A stretch of 64,000 nt of DNA from Bispira polyomma (taxonomy: Eukaryota), in the NCBI GenBank assembly GCA_965649765.1, contig OZ287751.1, positions 99,510,001-99,574,000 of the forward strand, given 5' to 3'. Under the pieces are notes generated by a model, which saw nothing but the letters and a program-made list of their open reading frames with translations, was not told the DNA's origin and searched no databases. Below are positions 3,346 through 48,480 of the stretch, piece after piece. Positions within the stretch are counted from its first letter, which is position 1. Each line of letters begins with the position of its first letter. The position numbers and the translations under genes are program-made.

Positions 3346-4223
3346 CACAGTTTCTATTGCTTTAGTTTCACTAAGTATATTCCAATAGTATGCGCTGACA
3401 TGAAATCCACTTATAGTTGGGATGAAACACACACACAGAGGAATTTACAAACCAATTTCACTTTCCCTACTTTTTAAATACATCATAAAACTTCGGGGAG
3501 AAAAACGGGGCTTTCAATATTTGTGCACTTTTTTTTCTGCACAAATTCTCTGAAGTTTGTTTATCAGTATGAGACACAACTGACTCCAGGCCAGTTTTAC
3601 AAAAATGAATGAATTGTTATTCAAGAGTACAAGCAAAATAAAAAAAAATCAAACATCATCAGAGAAAATAAATCTTGATAATGACTATACATTTCTACAC
3701 TAATTGCCAAAAAAACACAAACTTTGAAACATAACGACACAAACTCTGTCAACAATTAATTATTTAACACTTTATTATCCATTAAAATAATGTATTTCAT
3801 TTTAACACATGGTTTTTGGCTAGGCTGTTATTTCAAAATAGGCCCCAGGTGATTTTAAGTTCCACTTCTGATGTTAGAATACCCCAGGTTTTTGGCATTA
3901 GTTTTGGAGTAGATTAAAATATTTTGGTATAGTTTGATTAAAGTTCGACTATTTTTAACTAATGAAAATATGGTTAAAAAAGGGGGTAACACAACAACCT
4001 TTTAAACAGTCTACAATCCAAAATCTAAAGAGCAGAAGCTCTGTTCTGCTAATGCCTAATCAAGTTCTGTCATGCGGTTTACATCATAAAATAGTGACAA
4101 CAAGATGAATAACACATTGGGGCATTTTTATTAATACATCATTACATATTAGTAACAATCACTAAGATGGTTAAAACTACCAGGTTAGTCTGTTAGCTAT
4201 ATACAACAAGTTCCTAAACCCAA

Positions 4224-5201
4224 TTACGTTGTAGTGATAGGTTTTTTGAAAACGCAGGCAACTGAGGCCACCTCTTCGGGTGTAGTTTCTAGATAGTGCC
4301 AAATTGCCTGACTCTTCCACCCCCCATGGGCCTGAATACTCTGCAACTGCAAATTTTTATTAAACACAAAGGAAGCACCCGAACGCCTAAAGGCATGAAA
4401 CCCATAATTTGTATATTCAATCTGCAATTTGTTCAATATAACAGCCAGAGCTTTTCTAACTTTGTATGCAGTAAGAGGTACCAGTGTTTTGCCTTTTGGT
4501 ATTACAAACAAGGGAGAATTACCTGTGATTTGAAAAACATTTATCAGTTTTTTGATTACACGAACAGGACACAAGGCTGAGTGTTGCAATTTAGGAATTT
4601 GCACTCTCTGCACTTTGTTTGAACCCTGCATGGCTTTTTGCCATTTGACCACCAAGTGAGCCCCTGGACCTGCAAATATGACATCATTTACAGTAAAGTG
4701 TCTAGTTATGTCAAACGAATACATTGAGTTTGGAACCATATTGGACAATCTGAAAAATCCATAATATGCTACCAAAAAGATAGCTCTATACACCACTCCA
4801 TTGTTAAGATCCCTGCAGGCCAATGATATGCTCTCAATGTCCTGTATACTAAAAACTCCTTTGATTTTAGGTGCATAAAGTGAATTGATAGCCACCGACT
4901 TAATAAATAACCCAATTTTCCAATGAGCGAAGTGTGTGGTTGACAACCCATACAAACAGAAGAAGTGCTTGATAGCCGAAACATAATTCTGCAACCCCTG
5001 TGTTGCATTACCCTGTAGCACCAAATATTCTAGGAACATTAGCAAGGCATGGAGGGATTTATAGGACACACGAAAATATATTGTGAAAGCAAGAAACAAA
5101 TTAAATTTGCCTTTAAAAGCACTGGCTGTACGTGGTCTTAAGGCACAATCTATTCTTGCATCTGCCCCTTGGAGTAGCTGATTGCCCATCTTAGTACCCA
5201 C
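4224..5201 (-). CDS. Tyrosine recombinase of element B
   Basis: Open 325 aa frame with FFRLSNM, KWQK, FHAFRRSGA, HGGW, WHY motifs. Confidence 0.92.
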   Translation of the reverse strand: MGTKMGNQLLQGADARIDCALRPRTASAFKGKFNLFLAFTIYFRVSYKSLHALLMFLEYLVLQGNATQGLQNYVSAIKHFFCLYGLSTTHFAHWKIGLFIKSVAINSLYAPKIKGVFSIQDIESISLACRDLNNGVVYRAIFLVAYYGFFRLSNMVPNSMYSFDITRHFTVNDVIFAGPGAHLVVKWQKAMQGSNKVQRVQIPKLQHSALCPVRVIKKLINVFQITGNSPLFVIPKGKTLVPLTAYKVRKALAVILNKLQIEYTNYGFHAFRRSGASFVFNKNLQLQSIQAHGGWKSQAIWHYLETTPEEVASVACVFKKPITTT

Positions 5202-5205
5202 AATT

Positions 5206-6944
5206 TTAAATAGTAAAATCTGGCAAAAATGCGCTATGCTCTACAGGCCACCATGTGTACTGTTGCAACTCCTGAATTACTTCTTTATGAACTACTTTCC
5301 CAGAAAACCACCTAGAGAGGGCATCTGCATGACTATTTTCTTGACCATAAATATGCCTGTATTCTAGAGTTATGTCGTACTTCGCAGCCAGACCCCAGAT
5401 GGTCCTAGCACAAGCCATAAGAAAATCGTCCCACATACGACCCGAATTAAGCGCATGGACCACTGCCATGTTGTCGCACCATATGCGTACCTTCTTGTTG
5501 ACCCACAGCTTAGCCCAAATTCTGAAAGCTACCAATACATTTAGTATCTCAAAATGGACTATAGTAAGTCCCCCAGATGCTTCTGATGGGTAGGCAGCCG
5601 CATATACATTGTTTTGCCATTTAGCTCCAATACCTGTCAGAGAAGCATCAACATATACTTCTAGCTGTGGCTTTGCTGCATTTATGACCACCTTGCCATT
5701 GTAATCTTGTATAAAACTATTGAACCACCTGAGGTCCCTAAAGAAGGACTGTGTCAATTGAATTCTGCCAGGGCCCTTAATTCCCCTCAACAACTGCAAC
5801 TTTCGGTTTACAAACAACTTGGCCGGATGTATACATTTATGAAGATAAAACAACCTGCCCAATAGACTTTGTAATTCCCTTTTTGACGCCCTAGTTTTGG
5901 TTTTCCAATCATGACAGACCTGTCCAACTTATTCGGGTTAATAGGAAGACCCAGGTTTGTGAACAATTCCTGCAATTTTTTGTAAGCTTTATGTGCGTCT
6001 TGTGATGTCACAATACCGATTACGTCATTGATATAGTTCATTACACAGAAACCCTGTGATGTCATAGCATCACGCAGTACGTCCGTTACGCACTGGCATA
6101 AGGCACTTCCGGTTTTTAACCCGAATGTAATGCTTAAATCAACATAGGTTTTATCTTGATGCTTTATGCCCATGACGTCATAGTTACCCGGGTCTAATCG
6201 CAAATTTCTGAATGCCCTACTTATGTCAGTTTTGAAGAGACGCGCCTGAGGACCTAGTTCTGCAATTTTTTCTACAATGTTATCAATTGTTGGATATTTT
6301 AAACTGAAATGTTGGCCATCATACATATCATCACTAATAGCCGAGTTAACCAAATTTCCATGTGGCCAACTTAAATCAATGATAATGCGTCTGGATGCAT
6401 TTGGCTTAGGTCGAGAAAGCATGGGAGAGTAATGTAGCAACTCAAAAATGTTAGGATCACAAGGACCCACTATGGCTTTATGCTGTAACTCCTTGTTAAA
6501 GTAGACATTAACATCATCCGGGAACTGATCCGCCGAGAAGTGATTTTTTGAATCCCTATTATGGATAAAAGTACTCCTGTCTATTCCCAAAGGAAATCCA
6601 ACTTCCAGATAATTAATTAATGCAACATCCTCATGGTTACTTAGCAATGTTTTCCAATTATCTATGCAGAGATCAGAGGGGACAGGAATGCGCTCCTGCA
6701 TGTATTTAGGTTTACCACTACCCTTGACCATGCCATGAACCTTGGCCACCCAGTCATGCATTGAGTTGGCTGAGACTGTTTGTGTTATTCTCAAGTTAAC
6801 TTGCCTATAAATAGGGACAGAAATAAATCCAACGCTTCTATTAGAACATTTCATTATGTTTGAGTTACAATTGTTATGTTGACGGTCGTTTTGCAGACCT
6901 ATAACAGTTTGAGTTGTGGGAACTCCAATGGAATCAGCACTCAC
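5206..6944 (-). pseudogene. RT-RNase H of element B (disrupted)
   Basis: RRIIIDLSW, KTDISRAFR, catalytic motif reads YIND, frameshift/deletion near 5860-5925. RNase H motifs DASLTG, FEILN, CDNMAVV, ADALSR. Confidence 0.9.
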
Positions 6945-7876
6945 GGATCCCTGTATAACTTACTTTAGTGGCAGTTTGACACTACTGTTACTGATATCAT
7001 TGCCTTGCTTTAGCAAAGCTCTATCCTTGTAGCCAGTATCTTGAATTGTAAAATTTTTACAACACATATTCTCATCCTGACAGTTATGATTTTCAGTACA
7101 TTGTAGAACGAGTACATTATGACTATCTGGTTGTCCTTCCTGCCTAAAATCACTAAGATTGTCACTCTCATTAAGCATTTCATGCTGTGACTGACTACTA
7201 ACTACATAGCCACCAACTGTGTTATTTTGATTACATACACTTAAATGTTGTTTGTGTTTAAAATCTTTTTGTTCACTAAAAGATTCTGCAACCCGAGAAT
7301 TTAACTGCCTGTCATTACACAGAGCTGTGTGTGAAGGCAGGTTTTGTGACAGAAACAGCTGATTCTGATTTGCAATACGAATCCTTTATATGGTGAACAT
7401 GATTTTTATGACATCTCACTGGGTAATTTTTACAATGTATTTTGAGGGACGAACTCCCGCTGTGTTGAAGATCTACTGCTACCGAGCTGTCATTATTCCT
7501 GCCTGGATTAATATTTTTTAGCACTGAACATCTATCAGCTGATATGCAGTCATACTTCAACACACACGTAGTGCGTACTTTGGCCTCAAAACACTCTTTC
7601 TCTCCAATACTGGAGTGATACTCGTCGTCACATACAGAACCTCTGCACGTGGTTTACACATTGAACATTATTAACACTGTCACACAAATCTACAGATACA
7701 GGTTCACTCCAAGGGGTGTGATGAGTGCCCAGCACTCGAGTTCCATTAGACACATGTTTAGAAACATTAAAATTAGTTTTTTTACTACTAAAATTGTCTT
7801 TGTAGAAGGCAACGCCATAGTGTTGGTGGTTTCAGTTCGGGGTACCAGTCTTTTGTCACGCTTGATTGCGTTTCCC

Positions 7877-7884
7877 TATATAAA
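7877..7884 (+). promoter_or_regulatory. Putative TATA box of element A
   Basis: TATATAAA ~45 nt inside the left terminus; copy G has CATATAAG at a similar offset. Confidence 0.35.
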
Positions 7885-8052
7885 TCAATAAAATTTCAAA
7901 TCTCTTTCTTTACACCAACCGTCAGCAGAGGAACAACATTGAATTAATACTGGAGATTTGTGGCAGAGAGTCTTGGTTTTGTTTTAATATACTTGTTTAC
8001 ATTTGTTTATATTCGTTTTAGTATTTTAGTGTAACTGTAACTGTTTCTCACA

Positions 8053-9120
8053 ATGCCACGAGTAAAAGTGTATGGTTGTTCCAAATGCATGGAAAGGCAT
8101 GCCAGACCAGTCGGTACCAAATGTAGTCGTGTGTTAAATGAGTCCATTTCCGAGGACGAGCTAGTTGATGGGGCGGATTCCGTCGCTCCCAGTGGTCTGG
8201 CGGAGGTTTCCAGTAAAATTTTACTGCAATTACAGAGCATGGGTGACATGATGAGTCGGCTTGATAAGCATGTTCTCCTCACTGAAGCGGCTTTGGTGAA
8301 GGATTCACCCAACAATTGTAATGGGAGAGATAAAAATTCTGTTCAAAGTACCTGTGAAAATCCCAATGCTGACGGCTCGAACACTGACGCAACTGTAGGG
8401 AGTGGACATACGGATCAAATCAGTGCTGTCAGTGTGGACAGTGTGGTCCCGACTATTGAGTTTCTGCGAACAAACACCAGTATCCAAAGTCAGGTCGAGC
8501 AACGTCTTAGTGAACTTAAGGAGCTAAACGAGAATCCGAAAAAAGGTAAGATCAAATCACAAAGAGGGGGTGGCGTTGATGTTTTAGTGAAAAGAGTGGT
8601 CGAATGGCCCCAGAATCACGTGTTGTCCGGAAACTTTAAAACGCGACCCAGTTATGACGATCTTTCTCTTAGTCAATGGGTATGTGGGTTTACCCGCATT
8701 ATTCAAGATGAAAAAAAATCGGAAATAAAAGAGATTATGTTGGATTACATGGCGGGCTTAATGGAGGACTCCCAGGATTTTTCCTGGGAGGCCGCCAAAG
8801 CCTGCCATGCCGTGGTGTTAACCACCATGGAAATGGATAAATTGAAATGGACAGAGGTCGAGAAATTAGATAGGTTTCGTCGCGCCCATGCCCAGAGGCA
8901 TGTATCAAGCAGTGGTAGCAGCAGTACTTTCACGAGGGGTGGGAGTAAAAGTACAGGCATGGGGAGGCAGGGCTCGGCCAATTGCAAATTTTATCAGGAA
9001 GGTTCCTGCAAATTTCAGTCTAGCCACAAGAGTGGAAATACCTTCTTTAAACATGTTTGCGAAACATGTGCTGGGGCGCACAGGAGTGCTAATTGTACCA
9101 AAAAACAGTCAAAAAACTGA
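8053..9120 (+). CDS. Gag-like protein of element A
   Basis: 355 aa ORF. N-terminal CxxC..H..PVG..C motif and C-terminal Cys/His cluster (CKFYQEGSC..H..HVCETC..H....C). Homologous to decayed ORFs in B, C, F and G (KIKSQRGG, WPQ, DFSWEAAKACH). Confidence 0.85.
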   Translation: MPRVKVYGCSKCMERHARPVGTKCSRVLNESISEDELVDGADSVAPSGLAEVSSKILLQLQSMGDMMSRLDKHVLLTEAALVKDSPNNCNGRDKNSVQSTCENPNADGSNTDATVGSGHTDQISAVSVDSVVPTIEFLRTNTSIQSQVEQRLSELKELNENPKKGKIKSQRGGGVDVLVKRVVEWPQNHVLSGNFKTRPSYDDLSLSQWVCGFTRIIQDEKKSEIKEIMLDYMAGLMEDSQDFSWEAAKACHAVVLTTMEMDKLKWTEVEKLDRFRRAHAQRHVSSSGSSSTFTRGGSKSTGMGRQGSANCKFYQEGSCKFQSSHKSGNTFFKHVCETCAGAHRSANCTKKQSKN

Positions 9121-9211
9121 GAGCCCACTGCAGCAATGCAATGGGCGATAGTAGAAATTTCAAACGGGTTTCCAGGATTTTCAACTGTTAGACACCAATA
9201 CTGCTAGACAA

Positions 9212-9916
9212 ATGTGTCAATACTATCGTGGTAAGAAGTATAACCAGAGTTATAGTGACATAGTAAAGCGATCTGAATGCAGGCAAGCATCTGAGGCGAG
9301 TTCTACTTGTAGTAAAATTGCCAATGTCGTTCGGTACGTTAAAAGTCGCACCTTCACTAGACAAAAGAGTCATAGTGACATAGTAAAGCGATCTGAATGT
9401 AGACAGGCATCTGAGGCTAGTCCTACTGGTGGTAAAATTGGAAATTTCGTTCAACACAGTAACAGTCGCACCTTTACTAGACAAAAGAGTTATAACCTCC
9501 ATAGGGTGGGGTCCGGGCCAGATCCCCACAGTACTACCCCCCACAAGGGCAATACTAGTGGGGGGAGGAAAAGCACTGGGGAGGGCGAGGCTGGGCTCTC
9601 ACTTACAAAGCCAACAAAGGGGCATGGAGGAGTGCGTCTTAATAAAAACAATCAAATAAAGTTACAGAACAAATTTGCTGTGCTTATGTCTCCTGGCTCG
9701 ATGGAAGTACGTGTGAATGGCGTGGGACAGCAGGTGTCATGTTCTGGTAATAAAGGTGTTATGCACTCACGTATGAATGCGACAAAAACGAGAGAAGGAA
9801 AAACAAATAGTAGCGAACATAGTAGTATTAGGCAGGCCACTGTGTCCAATGTGTCACTGTGGCTCGTGGGGGTACTGACAACCATATGGTTAATGACAAA
9901 TATGCCCTGGCCCTGA
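9212..9916 (+). CDS. Low-complexity basic linker ORF between gag and RT (probably the N-terminal part of Pol)
   Basis: 234 aa, frame open from 9155. SYSDIV and NKFAVL motifs parallel TYAQVV and NRFTPL in the same-position ORF of copy C (24147-24686). Confidence 0.55.
   Translation: MCQYYRGKKYNQSYSDIVKRSECRQASEASSTCSKIANVVRYVKSRTFTRQKSHSDIVKRSECRQASEASPTGGKIGNFVQHSNSRTFTRQKSYNLHRVGSGPDPHSTTPHKGNTSGGRKSTGEGEAGLSLTKPTKGHGGVRLNKNNQIKLQNKFAVLMSPGSMEVRVNGVGQQVSCSGNKGVMHSRMNATKTREGKTNSSEHSSIRQATVSNVSLWLVGVLTTIWLMTNMPWP
9246..9495 (+). repeat. 120-bp in-frame tandem duplication (~2.1 units)
   Basis: AGAGT(T/C)ATAGTGACATAGTAAAGCG at 9246 and 9366, partial third copy at 9486. Encodes the 40-aa repeat SxSDIVKRSECRQASEAS...SRTFTRQK. 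Confidence 0.9.
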
Positions 9917-11706
9917 AGCAAAAAATTAACAAGAAAGAACTTTTGAGTAAAGCCAAGGGCAATTTCACTCACTGCAAATGGCGTAGCCAGAATAGGGTTG
10001 AATACGGTTTTACTCCCCTGTCCGACTTGTGCTGTAGGGTTTGGGATAGGGGAGCCGAAAATTACAGTGCTGACATTTTAAAATTGCATCAAGTACTAAG
10101 AGAGGATGGGAGACAAAATTTTAAGGGACTGCAGCTACCCGTTAAGTCGCAACTAAATCCGGAAAAGTGGTTTCAATACTTGAAATCTTATTGGGATTGG
10201 CAGCTTCCCTTATTGGTCAAGTACGGCTTCCCCCTCGATGTGAGGCGCGAAAATATTACTCAATCAGACGTCAGTAATCATAAGTCGGCTCTAGAGTTCC
10301 CAGAGCACGTTGACACGTATTTAAAGGAGGAGTTGAAATATGATGCTATTCTGGGCCCTTTTAAGGATCCCCCTATACGAAACATGCATTTTTCTCCCAT
10401 GATGACCCGTAATAAATCCAGCTCCAGTAATAGGCGTGTCATTGTGGACCTTAGCTGGCCAATTGGTGAATCAGTGAATGCAGGGGCTTCTCCCGCTGAG
10501 TATCTTGGCACAAAATTTTTACTGTCTTATCCGTCAGTGGATAGTCTTACTAATAAAGTGCAGAAACTAGGCAAAGGTTGCAAGATATTTAAGGCCGACA
10601 TCAGTCGCGCATTCAGGCACGTGCCGATTGATCCGGGGGATATTGATCTGTTGGGCTTAAAATGGAATTCTTACTATCTGGATAGGGCTCTCCCGTTCGG
10701 GTTCCGGAACGGATCCACTATTTTTCAGCGAATTTCTGACGCCGTAAGATATATCATGCTTCAGGAAGGCTGGCATATACACGCATACATCGATGATTTT
10801 TTATGTGTTGCCCTCCCAAGTAAAATTACAGATATATATAACAGGCTTCAGGCCTTGCTCAATGAATTGGGTCTTACTGTTAGCCCTAAGAAATTAGTGC
10901 CCCCGAGCACTGAAGTAGTATGTCTTGGTATTTTAATTAATACTGTGGATTTTACCACGTCTGTTCCAAGTGAAAAAATGTCTGAGATTAAAGACTTATG
11001 TAAAATATGGCGCACTAAAGAGAATTGCACTAAGAGAGAGTTGCAGTCATTACTTGGCTCCCTTCTGTATATTTCAAAATGCATTCGATATGCCAGAGTG
11101 TATCTCAATAGAATGTTGCAACTGCTCAGAGATAATCATACCAGAAAAAGGTTTACACTGACAAATGACTTTAAGAGGGATCTTAACTGGTTTTGTACCT
11201 TCATGCAGCAATTTAATGGCACAAGTTTCTTTGTTCACAGGCCTATCGATGCTCAGGTAGAGCTAGACGCGTGTTTAACTGGGATGGGCGGAATTTATGC
11301 TGGCCAGGTATATAAGTTATCTGTTCCAAAAGAAATGGCAAACCATAATATTGCTTCGTTGGAAATGATTAACATTCTAGTAGCACTCAAATTGTGGGTG
11401 AAACTGTGGCAAGGAAAGAGGGTACTATTTAAATGTGATAACCAGGCCGTGGTCAGTGTGTTAAACAGTGGTCGGACTCAGGACCCCATTTTGGCAACTT
11501 ATACTCGAAACATTTACTTGTGGGCCAGCCGATTTGATATCGACGTGAAGGTCATACATATTCTTGGGGTTAAGAATAAGGTCGCAGACCTCCTGTCCAG
11601 ATGGGACAGAACGAAATTGAATGCACAATTGCTGCATGAATGGGCGGGCCCAGTGGTGTGGCTTCCCACTAGTGAAGCCTTGTTACAGGTAATTACGGAT
11701 ATCTAA
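9859..11706 (+). CDS. Reverse transcriptase-RNase H of element A
   Basis: 615 aa. RT motifs RRVIVDLS, KADISRAFR, LPFG, YIDD (10786-10797), CLG. RNase H motifs LDAC, LEMIN, CDNQAVV, NKVADLLSR. No methyltransferase domain after RNase H. Confidence 0.95.
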   Translation: MARGGTDNHMVNDKYALALKQKINKKELLSKAKGNFTHCKWRSQNRVEYGFTPLSDLCCRVWDRGAENYSADILKLHQVLREDGRQNFKGLQLPVKSQLNPEKWFQYLKSYWDWQLPLLVKYGFPLDVRRENITQSDVSNHKSALEFPEHVDTYLKEELKYDAILGPFKDPPIRNMHFSPMMTRNKSSSSNRRVIVDLSWPIGESVNAGASPAEYLGTKFLLSYPSVDSLTNKVQKLGKGCKIFKADISRAFRHVPIDPGDIDLLGLKWNSYYLDRALPFGFRNGSTIFQRISDAVRYIMLQEGWHIHAYIDDFLCVALPSKITDIYNRLQALLNELGLTVSPKKLVPPSTEVVCLGILINTVDFTTSVPSEKMSEIKDLCKIWRTKENCTKRELQSLLGSLLYISKCIRYARVYLNRMLQLLRDNHTRKRFTLTNDFKRDLNWFCTFMQQFNGTSFFVHRPIDAQVELDACLTGMGGIYAGQVYKLSVPKEMANHNIASLEMINILVALKLWVKLWQGKRVLFKCDNQAVVSVLNSGRTQDPILATYTRNIYLWASRFDIDVKVIHILGVKNKVADLLSRWDRTKLNAQLLHEWAGPVVWLPTSEALLQVITDI

Positions 11707-11742
11707 ACTTTTGTCATCAAATGTGTAATTTCAGGTCACAGT

Positions 11743-12720
11743 GTGGTGGAAAGTTTGCTGACCAGCCTTGCCTGTAGAAGGATGCATACAGCTCTGGCTC
11801 CGTCCACATCTTCTGCTTACAGCAGCATGTTTAAGATCTTCCTAGCCTTCACCATTTTTATGGCTTGGCCTAATGCTCAGGTGAATGTGTTTCAGTTACT
11901 TGCATTTCTTGAATTTTTGAGCTTTAACTGTGTGTCTCCTTCTCAGATTGCAAACTATCTTTCAGCTGTGAAGGCCAAGTGTATTCTGTTTCATTTAGAC
12001 GTTGAACCGTTTTCTGATCCAAGGATCTCGTATTACAGCAGGGCTTTGCTAGTAAACAGGCCTTTACAAGTAAAGCTGAAAAGTGTCTTCGATATCCCAT
12101 TAATGTTAAGTGTAGTACAAAAATGTCATTTAACTTACATGGGCCTGATATTTAAGGCTATGTATCTCACCAGTTTTTTTAGCTTTTTACGTCTCTCAAA
12201 TCTATGCCCTCATTCCATGGCCTCATTCTCACCGCTTAAACATCTGGCCAGGGGAGACGTGTTCTTCAAGCCTGGGTATGTACTGTTAATGATAAAGTGG
12301 AGCAAGACAATGCAGACTAAGGATGCTGTTAAACTACTGTCTCTTCCTGCTCTTCCGAATTCAGAGTTATGTCCGGTGGCTGCTCTGAGAGCTGTGTTGG
12401 CTGTATCTCGTGCTGGCAAGAATGCTTCTTTATTTCAATATAAAGTGAAAGATTCATGGGTTCCCATGACGGATAATCGAGTTAGACGGCATTTAAAAAA
12501 TATATTACAGATGCTGAATCTTCAGCACTCCAATTTAACTTTTCATTCTCTCCGGCGTTCAGGTGCCACGTTTGCGTTCAACAATAATGTTCCTCTACAG
12601 GATATTCAGCGACATGGCACCTGGACGTCGGACTGTGTTTGGCGTTATATTACTGATTCCGCTTTGGTTGGCACCCAGGTGGCTGACTCCTTTTCGGCTG
12701 CCCTACGAAGTACCTCCTAA
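11743..12720 (+). CDS. Tyrosine recombinase of element A
   Basis: 325 aa with the complete catalytic set: R (FLRLSNL), K (WSKT), HxxR (HSLRRSGA), HGTW, Y (WRY). ORF opens at GTG directly after a TTTCAG acceptor-like site. Confidence 0.95.
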   Translation: MVESLLTSLACRRMHTALAPSTSSAYSSMFKIFLAFTIFMAWPNAQVNVFQLLAFLEFLSFNCVSPSQIANYLSAVKAKCILFHLDVEPFSDPRISYYSRALLVNRPLQVKLKSVFDIPLMLSVVQKCHLTYMGLIFKAMYLTSFFSFLRLSNLCPHSMASFSPLKHLARGDVFFKPGYVLLMIKWSKTMQTKDAVKLLSLPALPNSELCPVAALRAVLAVSRAGKNASLFQYKVKDSWVPMTDNRVRRHLKNILQMLNLQHSNLTFHSLRRSGATFAFNNNVPLQDIQRHGTWTSDCVWRYITDSALVGTQVADSFSAALRSTS

Positions 12721-12832
12721 AATTTTTTGGGCTTGGTGGTTTAGATTTTTCCTCTCACCTAAAACTTTATAAATCTACATGTTTAAAACATGAAAAATAA
12801 ATGTCAATAAAATTAAATTATCACACTATATT

Positions 12833-13153
12833 GGGGCATAAGGTCACCCTCCTGTGGGGAGCACATAATGTACTCCTCCATCTAACTTTCTAAATCTTTG
12901 AATTTTAATTTCACTTAGAATTGCCTAAATTGTCTAAAATTTCAAATTTCATTAAACTTTAATTTATTCACTTAAACTTAAAATTATAGTATTCTTAAAC
13001 TTAAATTCCATTTATGGTCACCTTTTTCTGTTCCTAACTTATGGTCACCCTAACTTAAATTTGAAATCTCACTTAGGGTAACCTCATCTTGACAATTCCT
13101 TGTTCTATGGTGACCTTAAAATTTGTTGCTTTCTTAAGGTTACCTTATGCCCC
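12833..13153 (+). repeat. 3' palindromic repeat array of element A (GGTNACC core) enclosed by a 16-bp inverted repeat
   Basis: GGTNACC cores start at 12842, 13016, 13043, 13077, 13109 and 13138. GGGGCATAAGGTCACC (12833-12848) is complementary to GGTTACCTTATGCCCC (13138-13153) at 15/16 positions. Confidence 0.9.
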
Positions 13154-13300
13154 TCTTCTTAATGAGAAACTGTACATAGTAGTTTTAACCCTGTAGTGTA
13201 CTAATAAAATTATGAACCGCAATCTTTCTCTGTGTTGATAAATATATGAATAACTAGTTCATACCTGGTTCCTGGGAACTGTTATACTTGTTCATATAAT

Positions 13301-14345
13301 TTACACACGTGGACTTGGAGGATCTTTTGTCTCCCCGTTTTTTGACATTCTATTACATTCACATTGTTTGTGGGGCAGAAACCTTTTTAAAACAATACAA
13401 AACAAGCATGTTTCATCATTTTTTCCCCCTCTTCGTGATCTACATGAGAGCTGCAAGTGTTGTTATTAAACTTCAAACAAATGACTTCCTTTGTCCCTTG
13501 CTCCGCAGAATATTTACCCCACTGCTGATATTCGTTGCTTTGTAACGTGCGTTGCGAATTTTGCATGCGAATTCAATCGTCTCAAAATTTAGCCAAATAG
13601 ACTTGCCACGCTCCATGGTTTGGAGAACTACTCTATGAGCTTGTTTAACCATACCCCAGTTGGTCTCCATAGCATCCTGCATTAGCAGTTTTAAATATTC
13701 TAGCATATTGTCCTTGACCTTTTTACTGGTTTCTTCCTGTACACAACCAATGAACCCAAACATAAATTGGAAGGGGGTAAGCTCTTCGTACTTGGGATTT
13801 CTCCCACTGATACCAGTATAACAAAACTCATGGGGCCAACCCACGTGGGCCTTATTCTTTTGCTCATTAACACGTAATAAACCTGATTTAGTTTTGTTCG
13901 TACCTGAGTCCCCGTTCACAACCATGTAATTTCTTGATCTGTAACTGTACTTGCTTCTGGATCTCCTCGTTGTTCTTCAGAAACTGTGGATCTGGCATGA
14001 CACTGTCATTCTCTTCATCTGATGAATTCTCGTGAATAGTAGCTGCCTTTCTGGTAGACACGTGGAACCTTTTGGAGCCATGGCCACGCTTGGGTGAGCT
14101 TTGCAAGACAGCACTGAGAGAATGTTCATTCACCCCGTCTATTTTTGTCTCTAGACGTTTATTGTGCTCCTCAAGAGCAGCAATTTTTTTGTAAAATCAA
14201 AGTTAATGGATCAGCCCCTGTGGTCACAGACGTGGCCCGCTCAGTTGTCTAGTTTCTCCTGCAATTCCTCCCCACAGGATGCACGTGTAGTGGTTCTTTC
14301 CCCAACTTCTCACACGCTGTACAGTGAAACGTTCTCCTTCTAGAA
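13301..14345 (-). pseudogene. gag of element B (frameshifted)
   Basis: CTAC..HVHPVGRNC near 14330; ORF pieces 13888-14133 and 13473-13925 (WPHE, MLEYL..LMQDA..W); ends HKQCEC..SKN. Confidence 0.8.
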
Positions 14346-15747
14346 AATAAGAGAAGTCCTCTCTCCCGCAACAAAACCTGGCTTGTCAAATTGAATATCA
14401 GTTGCACAAGGCAGTAGTAAACTTAAAATCTTCGTCTGAATTTAGCCCGATATTCTACAATAACAGAGCTTTTTCCAAGCCCGACAAGCCACGCCTTGTT
14501 GCAGAAAAAGAACTGTTTCCTCAGCTATTGCTACCTTCACAATGACTAGTATTTGCACAGCCAAGCCCCACCCCAACATTTTGACCCAGTATTCAACCAT
14601 GTGCTAGAGCTGTAGACTTTTACTGAACAACTCAGATTTATTTTTAACCACTATTTCCTAAAACCTAAAACTTTCAAGTTTAAGGCTCTTTTGCTCATTC
14701 TGTACTAACTGAGGACAAAGTTCTTTAATTTTATGTTTCAACTGAAACTTGTTGCTAACTCAACACACCCATTATGGTAATATTTACAATTATTTGAATA
14801 TATGTTAGTATAGGGGCCAACCCAAAATCAGGCATTAAAATAAATAAGCTTTAAAATCTGGGAGTTATCAACAAACATGTATCTTAAACCATAACTGTAA
14901 ATGTTAATCCACTTGAATCAATAAAATATGTGTTATAACATAAGATTTCTGACAAAAACAAATTTAAAAGAGGGGGTAATCTAAACAGGAGGAGTAAATC
15001 AAAATCGAGTAGCAGTTAAGTTAAACTATTTACAAATCGGTGAGTTTTGTATTATATTGTATCACAATTTTTATTTTTGATTGCTGTTGAAAATAGATAG
15101 CACTAAATATAGTTTTTTAGTAAAAAACAACAACTCTGGTGTAGATATATTTAAAATTTGACACATTCGTTTAGTTCAAGGTATATAAGCTGTTTTGTGC
15201 GATTAAATCACATCAAAAATATACTACAATGAAATGATAGACTAAAGTCACAAGTGTATCTTGCTTTTTGGTATTTTGCAATGTCTTCAAAACAACAACA
15301 AAATGTAATAGAACATTTTTAAATATAACTGTATCTTGTTTACTATTTAATAGTAATGATAGCTAATACTTAATACAAATGAAAAATAAAATGAAATTGC
15401 AACTAGCTATACAAATAACTCAAAACATCATGAATCTGTCACAATTAAAAAGGGCATTTGAAAAATAAAGCAAATCCCAAATAAAAAAATATCTTTATGT
15501 ACTTGACCAGGAGGCAATTTTGAGTAGTCAGTTTAAGTTAAAGAAAACATAATGTTTATTGTTCCATCAGCCCAAGGCCCAAAGCTGTCATTTCCTACAA
15601 ACTTAAAGTGAGTTTTTAAGATTTCTATGTTGCAGTATTATTAAATAATTAACTTAGTATTAATAAACCCAAGCTAAATAGACCCGATGCACTGAGAAAA
15701 GAATATATCATTATTTCCATAACATATATTTTTGGTAGATATGTCTC

Positions 15748-16938
15748 TTAACATATTGTACTAGTAGTAGCCACACAAACTTCCAAAGAAGGTCCAGTTT
15801 TATTGCAGTCTTGGTTTAATTGCACATTTTCAGACCCTACCTCATCTTTCCGCACACAACATCCAAATGCCTTATTTAATGACTGCCTAAAAAGAGGATA
15901 AGTTATACTCAGTATGACTAGATTCACTGCCATCCCCGTGTTCACGTTCACAAGATACTCTGCCAGAAAAAGCCAGAGGCGAAAGTGAGAGCTGACATGC
16001 AATTTGTCTTGGGAGGCATAATTTTTTTTGATGAACTCCTTGTTGATGTAGAGCACTGTCTTCATCATATCGGCCGGAACTTGGCAGAGTAAAAAAACGA
16101 TAAAATACACAAAGGTTGCGTGCCTTAGCTGGGAACTGTCTGATTGGAAAAGTGGTGTAAGTTCACGTTGAGACTTATAAATTGCACGCAACATGAGTAA
16201 TAGTAAGATGCCAATGACTGCAAAGGGCACCGCATGGTTGGTAATGATTTCCAGTATCCGGACCTCAGGTTTATTGCGGAATTGTATTGGTAAAGGCACA
16301 CACAAGGGCCCCCTAGAGAGATATATCACTCCCACAGTAAGGCTGGTGTTTAGGTAGATTACTAAACTTACAACTACCATCAGGCAGATCACAATCCTCG
16401 CACGCATCACCGTACACATTCTGGGTGACTCTGATGGCCACGACATAGTAATATACCTATCCACGCATAGTGCAACGGCCAGCCATATGGACAGAAAAGA
16501 TGATATATTGCACAACATATCCACCAGCTGACAAAAAATTGGTCTATGGTAGATGTTATAGCCAAGAATGGTTAACCACTTCAGGAACAGCATAACAAGG
16601 TACAGGCCATTGGCGGTAGATATAGCGCAGAAATAGTGGCTCGATGAAAACTTTCTGAGCTGCAGGCCCATGGTTCCTATGGACGTGATCACATTAGCGA
16701 CTGTTCCTAGGACAACAAGAAGTGGTGTGTACCACACCTGAGTCTGGTGGACAATTTCTCCCAAAGAAGTTAAGCTGGCCGGTGTGTCCAATAGTGTATC
16801 AGCGATAGACCATACACTCTCTTCCTGGCCATAGCTGTTGTGAGACACAGTGGAAGGCTCTGCGGTGGTCACTAAGTGTGTTCCATTCTCCAGAACGGTT
16901 TGTGTAGACACAAATGATATATGGATATCCATGCTCAC
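15748..16938 (-). CDS. Class A (rhodopsin-like) GPCR, peptide-receptor-like orphan, uninterrupted CDS
   Basis: 396 aa with seven hydrophobic segments, TM1 GTVAN, conserved TM3 Cys (FCQL), DRY motif, ECL2 Cys, TM5/TM6 prolines and helix-8 FR. Acceptor-like TTTTAACCCCACAG ~210 nt upstream of the ATG. Confidence 0.9.
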   Translation of the reverse strand: MSMDIHISFVSTQTVLENGTHLVTTAEPSTVSHNSYGQEESVWSIADTLLDTPASLTSLGEIVHQTQVWYTPLLVVLGTVANVITSIGTMGLQLRKFSSSHYFCAISTANGLYLVMLFLKWLTILGYNIYHRPIFCQLVDMLCNISSFLSIWLAVALCVDRYITMSWPSESPRMCTVMRARIVICLMVVVSLVIYLNTSLTVGVIYLSRGPLCVPLPIQFRNKPEVRILEIITNHAVPFAVIGILLLLMLRAIYKSQRELTPLFQSDSSQLRHATFVYFIVFLLCQVPADMMKTVLYINKEFIKKNYASQDKLHVSSHFRLWLFLAEYLVNVNTGMAVNLVILSITYPLFRQSLNKAFGCCVRKDEVGSENVQLNQDCNKTGPSLEVCVATTSTIC

Positions 16939-17449
16939 AATGTTTTGGTTGTCTCAGCTATATCCTAATTCTACAAAATATTGAATATACCGGTATATGA
17001 TTTTTTTGAATATATCAAAAACAGTATAATAAAACCTCTATAAGCCAAACAAGAGGCAGAGTGAAAATGTGCTGGCAATAATGGCCTCAAGTATAATTTT
17101 TTGTTGACTGCTTGCCAACAGACAAGGAGTAACAAATGTTGCCGGCAACCTGTGGGGTTAAAATATATAAATCAGAGCAATTTGCATTGTAACCTGTTAA
17201 AATCAATATTGATCTGCCAAATGTCAGATGCTAAGTGGTCATTATCCTATATCAATTTGTAATAAACATTACAAGTATCAGCAATTTATCTGATACGTAT
17301 GGTCACATGTATCAACTTGTTATTGCACAAAACCTGTTATTAAAACTAAATTATCATTCCAATAGGTACAAAATAAAGTGTATTTCGAAGTGTAAATATA
17401 AGTCAATCTTGCCACCTTTATATTCACCACCTCAAGAGAATTAAAAAAC

Positions 17450-22407: not shown

Positions 22408-25289
22408 CTGAAAATATTAAAATATAGACCAATTTATTTCTAGAAGGTCATCATTGACCTGAAGCCAAATGGAATTTTTAAGTAAGTCTTTCAATTTAGC
22501 TTCATCATTGGGTGTAATAACCCATCTAGCTTCCATGAAAATATTCCTTGCCATAGCTGCGAGAGTGAGGACATATGCTTTTTCCCCGAGTTTAAAATTG
22601 AAACAACTGCCTGATTGCCCATTGGTTTTTCCATATTCTGATTGCGACAAGGATATTTAACATCTCGAGATGCACTATAGTATAATTTCTATATCCAATG
22701 GGGATTTCTTTAGTATAAACTCGATTGTTACAGCATGCGCCAAGTCCCTTTAGACATGCATTCACATGTACCTGATCGGTTACCGGTCTGCGGTCGAAAA
22801 AGGCCATACTGTTAAAAGCAGTAATACAGATGTTAAACCAGTTCAAATCCTGGTGAAAGGCCATATCTAGGTTAACAGTGTATCTAGCATTCTATTAAGA
22901 AAGGCTCGTGACATCCTAAGACATTTTGAAATGTACAATAGTGAACCTAATAAGGATTGAAGCTGTCTTTTAGTGCAGCATTTCTTATGTACCCAACTTT
23001 GACAAATTTGCTTTATCTCTTCGAGCTTACTGCTTAGGATTGATACCGTAAAGTCTTCTGTATTTATTAACACAACAAAGCAGACCACCTGGGTGCTAGG
23101 AGGAACTATTTTTTTCTTACTGATAACAAAGCCTAATTTGTTAAAGATTTCCTTGAGTTTGTCAAAGGATTCCAAAACTGAAGGGGAACAGCCATATCTG
23201 ATTACGTCGTCGATATAATTAATGACGTCTTAGCCATGTGACGTCACGATGAGGTGTACAGCATCACTGAGCCTTTGAAAAATTGCTCTGCCGTGGTGAT
23301 AGCCAAATGGCAGACACGTATCAATATTATAATTGTCAAGCTGGAAACCTATTAAATCGTAGTCTGCTTGATAAATCTTCTCGTGCCTAAAAGCGTGACT
23401 ATTGTCTAGCTTATAAAGTAGGGCACCCTTTCCTAACTTGACCACGTTACTAGTTATGTCATCCACTGTGGGAAGTGTTAACAAAAATGGAGTACCTAGA
23501 TACTGGTCTCTACTTATGGCTGAATTTACTGATTACCCTTGTGGGCAGCTTAAGTTGGTAATGACTCTTATGTGCTTATCATCCGTGTGTAAATCGGATA
23601 AGGGAGGTTCAGTGAAGGGACCTATGATTGTACCAAATTGTTTTTCTTCCTCAAGGTATGTTTTGATGTCATCTTTAAATAAATTAGCCGAACTGTGATT
23701 TTCACCTTTATTTTGTAAAGTGCACGTTCTGTCAAAGTCGAGGAGAAATCCAAATTGGATGAGGTGTAATAATCGACGATCCCAATAACCATCTAATTGT
23801 TTTTTCCCATTCTTCAACATTTAATTGTGACACAACTGGTATTTGCGACCCTGAGAAATTTGGACCATTATGTTGTTTAACCACTTTATGTAGTTTCACC
23901 GGATCTCTTAAGTGTGTAGGGGTTTTTACCACTTGGGGAAGTTTTTGATCACCAGAGGAATGAAACCAAAGTTTTTTTTGTTTTGCTTATTCCATTGTAC
24001 AAATACGGGATTATTCTCAGCCTTTTCTAAGACCTCCCTGTGTTTACGCTTCACTTGTAGCTGCAATTCGTTTTTGTCCCTCACTTGATTACATAGATTG
24101 TATAACCTCACCTAAGTCACAATCTGAATTGACAGCCATGTCATTTTCACCAAGTAATGTCAAGGGGGGTGAACCTATTATCCCAACTAGTCTTATTTGT
24201 GCTAGGACGGCCCTCTGTATGTGTAGGGATTAACTTGCCAAGTCCCCTTTTGTCCTTACTGGAGGTGCGACTTTGTCCATCGTTCCCTAAATTAACTTTG
24301 GGGCTCAGGCTTTGTTTGGGGGCTCCAACAATTGAGCCAAAGCTTGCCTTACTGACATGTTGATTACATTTCCTGAAACTGTGTACATTAGTGACATTAG
24401 TATTGACAAACTTTTGACTTTTTCTACTTTGGCGACCATCAGAAGGTGACATTTGGCCACAATTTTGTGCCCTTTTTGAATTTTTACTTGTATTACTCGA
24501 ATTCAAATTCTGTGTCACTACTTGGGCATATGTTTTCTTGGCAAACCTAGCCCAGTCCGCCCTCCAATTGTCGCTACATTGAACTTTAGCCTTTACATTA
24601 TTATATACAGTTTGAGCACCACAATATTGACCATAATTTTTTATCTGTACAGTAAGTAGTCTTACAAGGTTCATTTTAATTATCAATGTTGTGCACTGCT
24701 GTTATGCAATGCCCTAATTGTTTTTCGCACTAGGCTGTTCAGTGGATTTACCCATTTTGTTTCTATGGCAATCCTTAGAGGCATGGGGAAATGACTTCCC
24801 AAAAGACAAAGCACGTGGCACAGACATGTAAATAAGTTTGACCTTTAGTATCATGGTCAACCTTGTGGGGACATGAGCCTTTTTGGAAGTACCTGCAAGG
24901 GACTCCTTTTTCATTCATTTTTTGACTTCTACCAAAACTTGAGGAATTTGACTGAGTATTGTTTACCACTCTTTGGGCATGAGCCCTACAGATTCTGTCA
25001 ATTTTTGGAGTCTCGTCCAACGAAACTTTACCCTCTTCCATCTTACATAGAAGGACTGCATGTCTTCCCTTAGCAGCTTGCCAAGAAAAATCATGACAGT
25101 CCTCCATGAGGTCTTGTGCATATTCCAGCATGGCATTTTTAATATCAATATTACTCTCGTCTCTAACAATTGAACAAAGCCCAGACATTCACTGAGCCAT
25201 AGAAAGGCTATCGTAGGTAATTCGAGATTTACTTGTCCCTCCAAGGATGTGGTTTTGTGGCCAGGCCACTTGATGTTTTACCCAAACTC

Positions 25290-31390: not shown

Positions 31391-32513
31391 ACATATATCT
31401 CTCTATTTCTCTCTTACTGTTAACATGGCTTAGGTATTGTGTTTACAGTGCAAATACCGGTTTTCGAAATAAGCAAAACATTGTCACAAAAAATCACACA
31501 GGTGGTTGGGCACAGGAGTGGGATTTAAAATGAGCCCACACTAGCCCGAGAGTTATATCATGCTAGAACACAAAGGTCCATATAGGAAAACATTAGGATT
31601 AACATTATTACATGTCACAGACACCATCATAGAAATCTACACAAAAATACTGACATAAAAAAATATCACCTAATATCAGGGGACCTGGCAAGTTGAGCCT
31701 AAACATGTACATGAGACATACCCACCTCAGTGGCAAACATTTTATCTGTATTTCCTTAAAACCAGGTTCAGAAAGGGTCATGGTAATCGTGGTGTACATT
31801 TATAACTAGAACACCAGGTGTAACATTGTTATCAAGCAATATGGCAGATACTTGTAACATTATTAACCCAATATAACTGTCATCATGCATAGCTATTAGG
31901 GATGTAAATGCCACCCTGCTAACAGCATACATCTAAATAAGTAGATTTAACCTCTCTGACCCAAGGTCAATATCATAGACATTTCTTGTGCAAGAGACTG
32001 TTAAAAGTTTTCATATTATTTGGCTTGTACACTCCGACACCCCCTTACCACCTGGCTATAGTTATTGGGACTTCCCCATTGGTCTATTATTTCTGTTGTA
32101 AATCTAACAATTTAAAAAATTAATTTTACTTTTCACATCAGTGTCAACCTTGTGGGTCAGACTGTGATGGTCAGATATATTTTGGAAAAAGAAACCAGTC
32201 CTATTCCTACTGGAAAATATCATCAGGGATATCTAACAGACATATATTCCACTTTTAGCAATCTGAATTGATTAATTGGTCACATTATTCAGTCAACACA
32301 ATTCTAAAGGAAACATTTTTTTTTTCTATGCTAATATGCCATAAATATACCTATTATCTATCTTGATAGTTTATTCCTAAACAATTTATCTTTGCTGCAT
32401 CTCACACAGGCGACACAAATGCAAAACAGAGTTGCGATTTGTTCCATTGATCTTGTGCAGTCACATCTTGTGCAGTCACATCAAAAACAACAACAAAAGA
32501 GTCGTCTATCGCT

Positions 32514-32700
32514 ATCAGTAACAGTAACAATCAGTAACAGTAACAATCAATAACAGTAACAATCAGTAACAGTAACAATCAATAACAGTAACAATCAATA
32601 ACAGTAATAATCAGTAACAGTAACAATCACTAACAGTAACAATCAGTAACAGTAACAATCAGTAACAGAAACAATCAATAACAGTAACAATCAGTAACAG
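32514..32700. repeat. 16-bp minisatellite (CAGTAACAGTAACAAT)n, ~11-12 units
   Basis: Direct head-to-tail repeats with single substitutions. Confidence 0.95.
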
Positions 32701-34962
32701 CTAATTTATGATCGATTGTGATCTCTTAAAAAATGTGGCATTAATGTGTGGGGCATGTGGCATTAATTACAGCCTATTTATTTTCAACTCCTTGCTGAGG
32801 ATCAACTGTTACTTATCACAAAGGGACTGTCGTTGTGACCATTGAGCAAAGCATGTGAGTAACACACCCATTGAAAAGGAGACACTAGCAAGGCACTAGT
32901 GCTATTTATCAAAAGTCATAACTGCAGATTGTCCTTAAAATGAAACTTTAAATCCTTATAAATCCTCATTAAAAATGGTTACACTCACTATTCTGTTGTA
33001 AAATAACTTGATTCAATGAAAACATTATCACTACATAGTGTCATATTCAAAATAGAAAGAATACTATGACTGATCATTGTATAAAAAGAAAAAAAAACAT
33101 TTGTAAATATTACAGCAACTTGTTTCAACTAAGACAGAGAATCTATGCATTAATTTAGAATAACCATTCCTTGTTGTTTTCAAAGGAATATCTCAATTTG
33201 ATAATGCAGTACTTTATGTTGCTAACAAACTGAGATTCTGTATCACTTCCAAAATATTAGATATCATCACACAAACTGAACTGTATCAAAATGTTATTGT
33301 CTTTTAACCATACCAGACATATATTTAACCAGTTGGGTTAAAATCACTGCTCATAGCCAGTTCTAAAGGATAGCAGTCTTTCGGGGAATGTTACCAATCG
33401 ATCTTTAAATAATCTGAGTTTTCAAACAGAATAATTCATGTAATTTGTCCAGTTGAAAATATCACACAAGTTGGGAAAATTTATCAATTGTTCTTCAGGT
33501 TTGAAATCTTACAGTCCTTCAGAACAAAAAAATATAGGGATATAGTTTATCTTGAAACTATATCCATTTGTCTGATTTGTCTGAAAAAGATTAACATCAT
33601 TCAAACTAATTATCTAGGTTTGTAAAATTGGACAAGGACACATGGCATGCAAGGAGAATGTAGCTTTTCGTATTCTTATCCATTACATTTCGATTAAAAT
33701 TATTTAAAATTATATAGTAAAAGTTGGCACAAATGCAATTAAATAAATTGATATGTGCAATTGAAATGGTCGGGTCATGCCAATGTTTAAAACAATACAA
33801 TTTTCAAAATAATGGTTTAGTTGCCTAAGATCTAAATATTTAGAGATACACATTATTACTCCCTAAACACGTGTCATACTTTGACATAGTTATTTTCTCA
33901 CAATGTACAATGATAAAACTTCGACCAATGATCATAAAAATATAGACAACATCTTCTCAGTTGTTACCATACAAAATCATTAATAACTTAATCTAAGGTA
34001 TTTTTTCTTTGCACAGAAAATATTATATTTAATATGCAATAGCGGCTAAAGGGTCAACAACTTATATGAGAATGTGTGAACCCAAAATAGACTTGTTTAT
34101 GACATCACATAAAGTCCAGACAGTCTGACACTTAGATAAGTGGGAACATAATGCATTTAATGTTGTCTTAAGGACCCATGTCACACAGGCAAATTGGCTG
34201 GGCGACAAGTCTCGGCATGAAATATGTAAATACAACACACACTACAAATTGTTCCTCTACAATAATGAGGTTTCCCATTTGGATCAGTGAAATATGTATT
34301 GTGTGTCATTTTATTTGTAAAAAAGATGTGGTTTGGTTGTTACAAATTAGAATCAATTAATTAAGATATGTAAATATTATTATAAATTATAAGTCATATA
34401 TGTGACATGTTTGCGTGGGGTGGGTTCATACAGTATTCCTTTGCAGGAAACACAACATTGCCTAAATGTGTTGTCCTTGTGAGATCATTACATAGTGTAT
34501 GACCAGAGGAGGTGAGCCCTACCTTCAGTAAAGTCAGTGCTGTGCTGCCCTGTTCTTTTTGTTAAGGGCACAATTCTTGTTCATTAATTATGCGAACTAA
34601 TTAGGTCAGCTAATTGATGTCACTGCTAGTATAGCATGACAAGTCAGTAGTGAAAATTTGAAACTTTACTGTATACCCCTCCTTAACAAATTGTTTACTT
34701 AGCTACACCAATTAGACATAAAGACAATTCAGCTGAGCAACAAATCACCCACCTTCAAAGTCCAAAATTCGCAAGTGTATAATTAATTTGTTGGTAGGTC
34801 CCATATTATTCCCACAAGCCAAAATAAATGGGTAGAATATTATCTGAAGGTGGTCCCGCCTTTTTCTAATAGATTACCATTATTAAGTTGCAAGTCAAGT
34901 AAGCAACACATATTTTTTTCCAACCCCCCACCCTAAAACTTGTACATTCACTTCACTTTTCC

Positions 34963-46864: not shown

Positions 46865-48480
46865 CAGTTTCCTACAAGATGATCTTGAATATTGATGGTA
46901 TGTGAAAAGTTAGTAAAAGAGGAAGAGTGGGGATATTAGTTTTAATGATTAAATTAAATTCCTAACATTTATTTACATACTGAGTTGAGAGGGCACCTTA
47001 GAAGCATGCATTTCAAATTTGAAAAAATAAAGTCACCTTAAATTGAGATGACAACTTAAGGTGACTAGAAAATGTAATTTGAAACGAAGACTGGCCTTAA
47101 CTTTGGATAATAAGGCTACCTTAAATGTAAATAAACTTTTGAGTTTAGGGTAACGTTAAGTCTTGGTAAGGTTACCCTAAAGAGTTTATAAAGATGTATG
47201 AATTAAGTTAAGGGTTAATAAGAAGAGTGCTAAGGTCGCCCCAAACATTTATATGTAAGACATTCTAAAGCATGCATGATGTTTTATATAAAATATATGT
47301 AAATAGGGACCCAAAGAAGACTCTTGAATGCAAAGCTCCTTGCTCAGATGCATTGTAGTCATACAAAATATACTTCCACATGCACTCCGACGTCAAGGTG
47401 CTATGACTCTGTATGTCCTGGAATGGTTCATTGCTATTAAAAACAAAAATGGCACTAGATGTTTAGGCCTTTATGTTGTTTGAGTGGCTATCTGTCTTAG
47501 ATGAGAGGGCACATCTGCAATTATATTGACCAATCGACATGTAATATACCATCATGGACTTGGACCCACTGTGGGTTAGGTATTAAGTTGATTAGTTTGT
47601 TAATATTATCAGGCGTGAGTGGCCATTTATACAGCAGATCCGACACATGATTGTCTCTGCCTAGTGTATGAATAGTTCTTAAGCTGATATCGACTAAGGC
47701 AATTTCCATAAAAATGTTTCTTGCCACAGCTGACAGTGTCAAATCTTTAGTCTTACCCGAGCCCAAGATTCCTACTACAGCTGCATTATCACACTGAATA
47801 ATGAGTCTCTTGCCTGCCCATAGGGATTTCCAGACCTTTATAGCCACCTAAATGCACAATGGTGAGGTACAGGTAACCCAAAGGGAGTGAATGCTCCAAA
47901 CCTAGTCATTGAACCTACCCCTTAGGCCCTTGTAGGCATGCATCCAACTGATTTCAGTCAATGGTTGGTTCATGGTAAAAAAGGCTGTGCCATTGAAGAC
48001 AGGCAAAATTTTGCTGAACTAGTTGATGTCCTAATAAAAACTCAGTTCTTAATTTGTAGGAGTGAAGTCTTGCATGTTCACTAAAACCCCAAGGCAGGTA
48101 GCTTTGGTTCCAGGATAAACTGGTTTCTTTTCACTAATGACAAAGCCAAGTTATGGTAACAAGTGATACAACATGTCAAATGACTGTCTACTTTCTAAGG
48201 GGCTGCCATACCCAATGACATCTTCGGTGTAGTTTGTCATGTTATACCCATGATGCTTCCTGATAAATCTGATGCCATCGCTGAAAACTCACGCAATCAT
48301 GTCTAAAGCCAAACAGCAGACAGGAATAGACGTAATATTTGTCAAATTAAAGACCCTGAAGGCTGTAGTCAGCTGGGGCCATTTTCACGTCAATTTAATA
48401 TAATTAAGTACCACATCCAAGCCGACAAATTGTGCTTGTGATTGTATCAATAATAGGCAATGTATAGGCCTTATCTGAAG
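46865..48480 (-). mobile_element. YR retrotransposon copy D, heavily deleted
   Basis: RNase H ORF 47521-47847 (CDNAAVV, NHVSDLL); RT relics to ~48480; YR reduced to N- and C-terminal stubs (47330-47514); array 46990-47243; CAGTTTCC terminus at 46865. Confidence 0.85.
46990..47243. repeat. 3' palindrome array of element D
   Basis: About 8-9 variants, e.g. GGGCACCTTA, AGTCACCTTAA, TTAAGGTGAC, TAAGGCTACCTTAA, TTAGGGTAACGTTAA, TAAGGTTACCCTAA, TAAGGTCGCC. Confidence 0.85.

Follow-up and report, generated by a model that had tools for sequence, protein, structure and literature searches.

In element A, a tyrosine-recombinase (YR) retrotransposon lying on a 64,000-nucleotide stretch of Bispira polyomma DNA (contig OZ287751.1, positions 99,510,001 to 99,574,000; hereafter the window), the recombinase is probably made as a spliced fusion to about the first 165 residues of Gag, as predicted from the DNA alone. 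An earlier note on the window had proposed such a fusion from a donor in gag, AAG/GTAAGA (8545/8546; the slash marks the splice boundary), and an acceptor, TTTCAG/GT (11734/11735), and both sites are present in element A. Joining 8053-8545 to 11735-12720 yields 492 amino acids with only the terminal stop, and the junction reads ...NENPKK-G-HSVVES.... The proposal is supported, being the only reading that agrees with all of the following findings: the donor is constrained at the nucleotide level although the protein does not call for it, the acceptor matches it in phase, YR coding is conserved from the acceptor on, and neither a start codon nor the reading frame between pol and YR is conserved. 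The features that matter for the proposal are as follows.

8053 to 9120, plus strand: gag-like open reading frame 1 (ORF1), 355 amino acids, from sequence and an AlphaFold2 model (mean pLDDT 72).
8053 to 8545, plus strand: first coding exon as predicted, covering Gag 1-164 and the first base of Gly165, from the donor position and the joined frame.
8543 to 8551, plus strand: phase-1 splice donor AAG/GTAAGA, in a linker predicted to join helix 142-160 to the Gag core, from conservation and the structure model.
8546 to 11734, plus strand: predicted intron of 3,189 nucleotides, spanning the remainder of gag and the whole of pol, from donor and acceptor conservation and the phase match.
11729 to 11734, plus strand: phase-1 splice acceptor TTTCAG, 28 nucleotides past the pol stop.
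11735 to 12720, plus strand: predicted second exon, a complete Cre-like tyrosine recombinase of 327 amino acids after the junction Gly, from the Phage_integrase match and the structure model.

The earlier note had proposed that splice-site conservation be scored across relatives. Scored in this way, the donor was kept in 20 of 21 gag clusters and the acceptor in 17 of 20 YR clusters. For family A, 39 of 40 other scored places were fetched from 250 candidates, and the donor GT was retained in 34 of the 35 sequences that cover it. The divergent sample consisted of 60 more copies chosen to cover the range of identities returned by two YR searches of this genome, each of which gave about 12,000-14,000 first-look candidates (these are not copy numbers). 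The gag alignment comprised 35 sequences with long gag frames from 66 examined; these fell into 21 clusters at 75% identity, with pairwise identities of 16-74% and a median of 25%. One cluster with mixed members was represented by L084 (fetched genomic copies carry L numbers), a member keeping GT. G/GTA stood at the homologue of Gly165 of element A in 32 of the 35 aligned gags.

Base by base, the 21 clusters carried A or C at -3 in 21, A at -2 in 18 (7.9 expected from synonymous usage) and G at -1 in 21, followed on the intron side by G at +1 in 20, T at +2 in 21, A at +3 in 21, A at +4 in 11, G at +5 in 15 and T at +6 in 9. We take this MAG/GTAAGT-like profile to be the U1 donor consensus. 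The residues around the donor Gly vary (K, S, T, Q or A before it; K, M, N or T after it) while their bases stay constant. The Gly codon itself was GGT in 19 of 19 cases; at five further columns with conserved Gly, GGT was used in 41 of 94 (Fisher p=1.3e-6, without correction for relatedness). When all other gag columns and phases were searched for G/GTR as a control, each gave at most 6/21; the best pol column gave 6/9, at a coding Gly without flanking consensus. Judged from these alignments, the donor bases are under nucleotide-level constraint beyond what the protein requires.

The acceptor behaved similarly. In family A its AG was kept in 40 of 40 sequences despite indels in the preceding spacer. 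A phase-1 TTNYAG preceded YR in the 17 clusters mentioned above, while 402 control window/phase pairs gave a mean of 0.51 and a maximum of 8; for any phase-1 YAG the figures were 18/20 against a control mean of 4.1 and maximum of 14. Counted by copy, the site was in phase 1 in 60 of 66, shifted by nearby indels in four and absent in two. A held-out set of 20 further copies was fetched after the prediction had been written, 18 of them from one clade of the YR tree (a quick tree built only from YR sequences, without named reference elements). In this set the acceptor was found in 18/20, the other two having lost the junction through deletion, and the donor in 17 of the 19 that could be mapped. 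Among database YR homologues with upstream residues, probably from other genomes, a translated-acceptor signature occurred in 27 of 29 against 167 of 1315 control windows; this signature is protein-only, and its motif was defined after looking. Element A and its relatives carry donor and acceptor consensuses in matching phase, as a spliceosomal GT-AG intron does.

It is highly improbable that protein constraint and an AT-rich spacer suffice to explain the two motifs. A Gly is plausible as a linker residue at the donor, and the spacer is T-rich. However, synonymous positions are fixed while their neighbours vary, the sliding and column controls stay low, and the held-out copies came out as predicted, which largely refutes this explanation.

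We then considered what the acceptor opens into. YR of element A matches Phage_integrase with an E value of 7e-6, just below the curated cut-off, and its structure model (pLDDT 89) aligns with full-length Cre/Tre at a Foldseek template-modelling (TM) score of about 0.7; the second exon thus models as a full two-domain Cre-like enzyme. Confident helices at 3-19 and 22-41 begin right at the acceptor in this model, and residues L8, A12, R15, A19, T24 and Y28 recur in 57-68 of the 68 aligned rows. The position of the first in-frame Met, by contrast, varies by family between codon 4 and codon 183, so that there is no conserved start codon. Only 11 of 52 copies have the pol stop and YR in one frame. 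Across families the pol-YR spacer measures 6-30 nucleotides and leaves frames 0, 1 and 2 in 23, 11 and 18 copies, and in 11 of 39 copies of family A it shifts YR out of the pol frame. Because YR is conserved from the acceptor onward and has neither a conserved ATG nor a conserved frame with pol, it appears to need an upstream phase-1 coding exon. The gag donor would supply that exon, since no other conserved phase-1 donor turned up in the parts that could be aligned.

These findings also bear on two other routes to the recombinase. YR could be made alone from a downstream ATG, through an internal promoter or re-initiation after pol. Met31, found in 39 of the 68 aligned YRs, and a Met at codon 4-7 in some families speak for such a start, but a start at Met31 or later would truncate the core-binding domain within its conserved helices, the first Met of several families comes no earlier than codon 54, 78 or 183, and both splice consensuses would be left unexplained; we regard this route as quite unlikely. 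There is still less to be said for stop read-through or frameshifting from pol to give Gag-Pol-YR, which we consider very unlikely. The pol stop and YR do share a frame in element A and in 28 of 39 family-A copies, and fungal Ngaro YR is described as either in frame with or shifted from the reverse transcriptase (RT)-RNase H frame (PMC3783388, in excerpt). Nevertheless, the spacer frames are mixed across families, even subfamilies of A differ, and several copies have further YR-frame stops upstream of the acceptor.

The position of the donor was examined in the Gag model. ORF1 is laid out as an N-terminal Cys/His finger-like motif, a helix at 49-83, a disordered linker, helices at 135-160, a core at 167-291 and C-terminal Cys/His fingers, and P133, L138 and Q145 are invariant. 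The donor falls at a predicted domain boundary, in the linker that follows helix 142-160, and with this cut the fusion would keep the N-terminal finger and the conserved helices and drop the core and the C-terminal fingers. The gag label of ORF1 is suggested by its position and Cys/His fingers rather than by a family or fold match: zf-CCCH_4 matched weakly in 8 of 26 relatives' Gag (best E 0.021), Foldseek returned no match to the Gag model at E<=0.001, the best VIA Z was 5.2, and a predicted Gag trimer scored 0.02.

Several observations weigh against the spliced fusion. The pairing of donor with acceptor was deduced from their phase match, which chance would give one time in three, and from the lack of another conserved donor in gag and RT/RNase H; the search for other donors covered the alignable parts, to which neither the 5' leader nor the variable N-terminus of pol belongs. 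A single genome supplied all the DNA-level evidence, and its families share ancestry, so that the counts are not independent. Five copies with at least 99.5% identity (L087, L088, L151, L152 and L154) have a destroyed donor in common, although their YR is intact and has Met as its seventh codon, and GT is also lost in L107, L147, L150 and L020. The L087 group shares an altered gag/pol frame, while L153, a 98.8% relative, keeps the donor; copying in trans or a YR start at Met7 may account for this group, and translation of YR alone may hold for these copies only. It appears to be a recently multiplied and possibly non-autonomous sub-lineage, in which gag runs into the pol N-terminal region as a 631-amino-acid ORF.

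Both sites could instead be used with other partners: the acceptor with a different 5' exon, supplied by a donor in the leader or by trans-splicing of a leader, and the gag donor with another acceptor or only for U1 protection of the long RNA against early polyadenylation. Such U1-dependent protection is described for the copia element EVD (PMC5580714, in excerpt). We judge this unlikely, although less so than the other alternatives. A non-coding leader would require a downstream ATG, which is not conserved, whereas coding conservation begins at the acceptor; donor and acceptor are both phase 1; and a second conserved acceptor was absent from RT/RNase H (best 5/9; sliding-control maximum 8/20).

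Intron-less traces of the spliced RNA were sought as well. Four junction patterns run over this genome gave 0, 0, 0 and 1 match, and the sole match, L130, resembles neither gag nor YR. In DNA-like sequences, no donor-acceptor joint was seen among 15 of the 40 joints listed for A, nor at the one joint listed for L127, a young family. The lack of intron-less copies is neutral, because the spliced RNA may lack a packaging signal. L131-L133, YR matches with unusually long open frames, proved to be RNase H-YR run-throughs or deletions rather than spliced copies. Among database proteins, the best 120 of 420 YR matches were all <= 354 amino acids, two YR matches above 399 amino acids were RNase H-YR run-throughs and not fusions, and the Gag N-terminal region found no match. 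Database proteins could not show a spliced form in any case, because the entries look like ORF calls on genomic contigs.

The window holds at least seven Ngaro-like copies, and those other than A carry the sites to differing degrees.

13899 to 13906, minus strand: element B donor CAG/GTACG, homologous to that of A (tblastn).
5198 to 5203, minus strand: element B acceptor position, decayed to TTGTGG.
22408 to 22413, minus strand: element C acceptor TTTCAG; no donor region was found in this copy.
47515 to 47520, minus strand: element D acceptor TTGCAG; most of YR is deleted.
55106 to 57523, minus strand: element F, donor at 57521/57520 and acceptor ending at 55106 (sequence, tblastn).
58807 to 59531, plus strand: element G, donor at 58809/58810 and acceptor ending at 59531; pol is mostly deleted (sequence, tblastn).

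As the earlier note had stated, the donors of B (13904), F (57521) and G (58809) occupy the Gly codon homologous to G165 of element A by tblastn. Its claim of phase-1 acceptors in C, D, F and G (22408, 47515, 55106 and 59531) was borne out as to their presence, and as to phase with the YR frame in F and G. For C and D it stood only in part: there the acceptor is in phase 1 to the local N-terminal peptide only, C being frame-shifted downstream and D lacking most of YR. The TTGTGG that the note had read in B is a decayed acceptor, because the five closest genomic relatives of B (L041-L045) have TTGTAG at that place. Element A is inserted inside element B on the opposite strand (window 4007-14785). 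Several fetched genomic loci likewise show Ngaro copies in or beside other Ngaro copies. The window also contains a single-ORF rhodopsin-family G-protein-coupled receptor, probably a host gene, at 15748-16953 on the minus strand (Pfam 7tm_1, E 4e-14) and a tandem array of 16-nucleotide units at 32482-32732.

By gene order, repeats and the lack of a methyltransferase, element A (7801-13282) is an Ngaro-like YR retrotransposon. The following features define its outline.

7801 to 7947, plus strand: split direct repeat A1, the 5' end of element A; it recurs directly after repeat B1 in intact relatives, e.g. L001, L008, L018, L024 and L025.
9093 to 11706, plus strand: pol, with a variable N-terminal region, RT and RNase H and no methyltransferase (Pfam RVT_1 and RVT_3), broken by indels in element A.
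12737 to 13282, plus strand: split direct repeat B, where element A ends without A2-C-B2.

Ngaro elements, a superfamily of the order DIRS, are defined by the order gag, RT/RNase H, YR, by A1...B1-A2-B2 split direct repeats and by the absence of a methyltransferase (PMC3783388, PMC4157794 and PMC9210276, in excerpt), and these traits are shared by element A. Its ORFs run gag, RT/RNase H, YR, with YR last. Both pairs of split direct repeats (A1-ORFs-B1-A2-B2) were present in 13 of 17 self-compared copies, and intact relatives show A1-ORFs-B1-A2-spacer-B2 with an A2-B2 spacer of about 0.4-1.3 kb. A Pfam scan gave no methyltransferase match in element A. Nor is there room for one, as pol ends 33-35 residues past the RNase H ADxLSR motif in all nine pol ORFs. 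A DIRS1-like identity was rejected, the terminal repeats being direct, not inverted with an internal complementary region, and the methyltransferase domain missing. PAT-like elements combine split direct repeats with a methyltransferase domain (PMC4157794, in excerpt), so that the repeats of element A fit this group but the absent domain does not. Element A may nonetheless have PAT ancestry, because loss of the methyltransferase from a PAT lineage has been described (same source, in excerpt).

Element A is a defective copy. Its pol is split into two ORFs (9155-9916 and 9832-11706), which form one 872-amino-acid ORF in the 98%-identical copy L001, and only A1 and B are left of the repeats, the A2-C-B2 end of intact copies being missing. 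Between Gag and RT (9155-9916 in the window, and in relatives) lie about 200-300 highly variable, basic, low-complexity residues, and this region of element A contains a 120-nucleotide tandem duplication at 9246-9485. About 21 of 39 family-A copies (e.g. L003-L007) end like the window copy after repeat B without A2-spacer-B2, and 14 keep A2, as counted by eye. This truncation suggests frequent B1/B2 recombination, similar to the formation of solo long terminal repeats, or an alternative replication product. Elsewhere, L060, L062 and L063 (G000:C8 57.13-57.15 Mb) are tandem copies at about 5.5-kb spacing, and L091 has repeated B-A units; both are compatible with circle insertion into the element's own termini or with tandem duplication.

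The access to Pol was examined in the same copies, and one further feature was recognized.

9111 to 9146, plus strand: candidate site of -1 frameshifting, the heptamer A AAA AAC at the gag stop followed by a hairpin, recurring in related families.

The A AAA AAC heptamer occurred near the gag stop in 13 of the 21 copies listed, a strong 8-9 bp hairpin followed it in element A and in L101, L115, L118, L119, L121, L124 and L128, and in intact copies gag is overlapped by pol, which lies in the -1 frame. Pol of the L092-L097 clade instead lies in frame behind UAG-G, which suggests that this clade reaches pol by stop read-through. Gag-Pol is likely to arise from -1 frameshifting or read-through, as far as these sequence signals indicate. 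One superfamily would then have two recoding modes, -1 frameshift and UAG read-through.

On the basis of these signals and splice sites, the following expression scheme is proposed. A single promoter would give a full-length RNA that is translated into Gag, and the same RNA would yield Gag-Pol through the -1 frameshift, or through stop read-through in one clade. Part of the full-length RNA would be spliced, losing pol entirely together with the Gag core and C-terminal fingers, to encode Gag(1-165)-YR, in which the Gag N-terminal finger and conserved helices are set on a complete Cre-like enzyme. Retroviruses express their genes in a comparable way: from one promoter, full-length RNA gives Gag, frameshift or read-through gives Gag-Pol, and a spliced RNA lacking pol gives the 3' gene. 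In contrast to env, the 3' gene here is the integration enzyme, and the donor lies about 165 codons into gag, so that a large Gag piece would stay fused. In comparison with the Cre / lambda-integrase family, to which the second exon is similar, the predicted fusion adds a Gag-derived N-terminal module. Lambda Int also has an extra N-terminal domain, which is similar in position to the Gag module and unrelated in origin.

Goodwin and Poulter are said to have mentioned, in 2004, spliceosomal introns in some YR retrotransposons, so that splicing in this group may have been noticed before. In the literature searched, whose coverage did not extend to the founding Ngaro/DIRS papers and Repbase Reports, we found no description of spliced YR expression. 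The excerpts of PMC7192593, PMC4157794, PMC6681497, PMC3783388, PMC9210276, PMC8547959, PMC9341512, PMC3266345, PMC12440569, PMC13465315 and PMC5240408 contained nothing on YR splicing. In its excerpted text, the Ngaro literature presents YR as an ORF that is separate, overlapping or frameshifted, and mentions neither splicing nor a Gag-YR fusion. For Ty1/copia elements, conserved alternative splicing from a donor in gag sets protein ratios, and its product is Gag alone (PMC5580714, in excerpt). The donor in gag is common to both systems, whereas the product here would be a Gag-enzyme chimera. Of the two analogies drawn in the earlier note, the one to retroviral env therefore fits better than the one to copia.

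What the Gag piece may do can be considered at two levels. Its putative role, which we prefer and give about an even chance, would be to load the recombinase into the complex of Gag, RNA and cDNA by Gag-Gag contact and/or to guide it to target chromatin. More tentatively, and somewhat short of an even chance, Ngaro integrases in general may be chimeric, with a spliced Gag finger and helices on a Cre-like recombinase and the Gag piece as a targeting or particle-loading module. ORF1 appears to determine the integration-site specificity of Cafeteria Ngaros (PMC8547959, in excerpt). We infer that a Gag-YR fusion would explain this effect of ORF1 on integration-site choice, a link that is our own.

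If Ngaro integrases in general are such chimeras, the annotated YR ORFs of Ngaro elements would be second exons only, throughout the superfamily. The expression scheme, if true, would correct the annotation of a very abundant family. A spliced Gag-YR would answer the question of how elements of the DIRS order express a third ORF that has no start codon. With the real N-terminus defined and a separable module in hand, the meeting of recombinase and cDNA and the choice of target would become directly testable. The Ngaro elements would also have converged on the retrovirus-like plan of gag, gag-pol and a spliced 3' gene.

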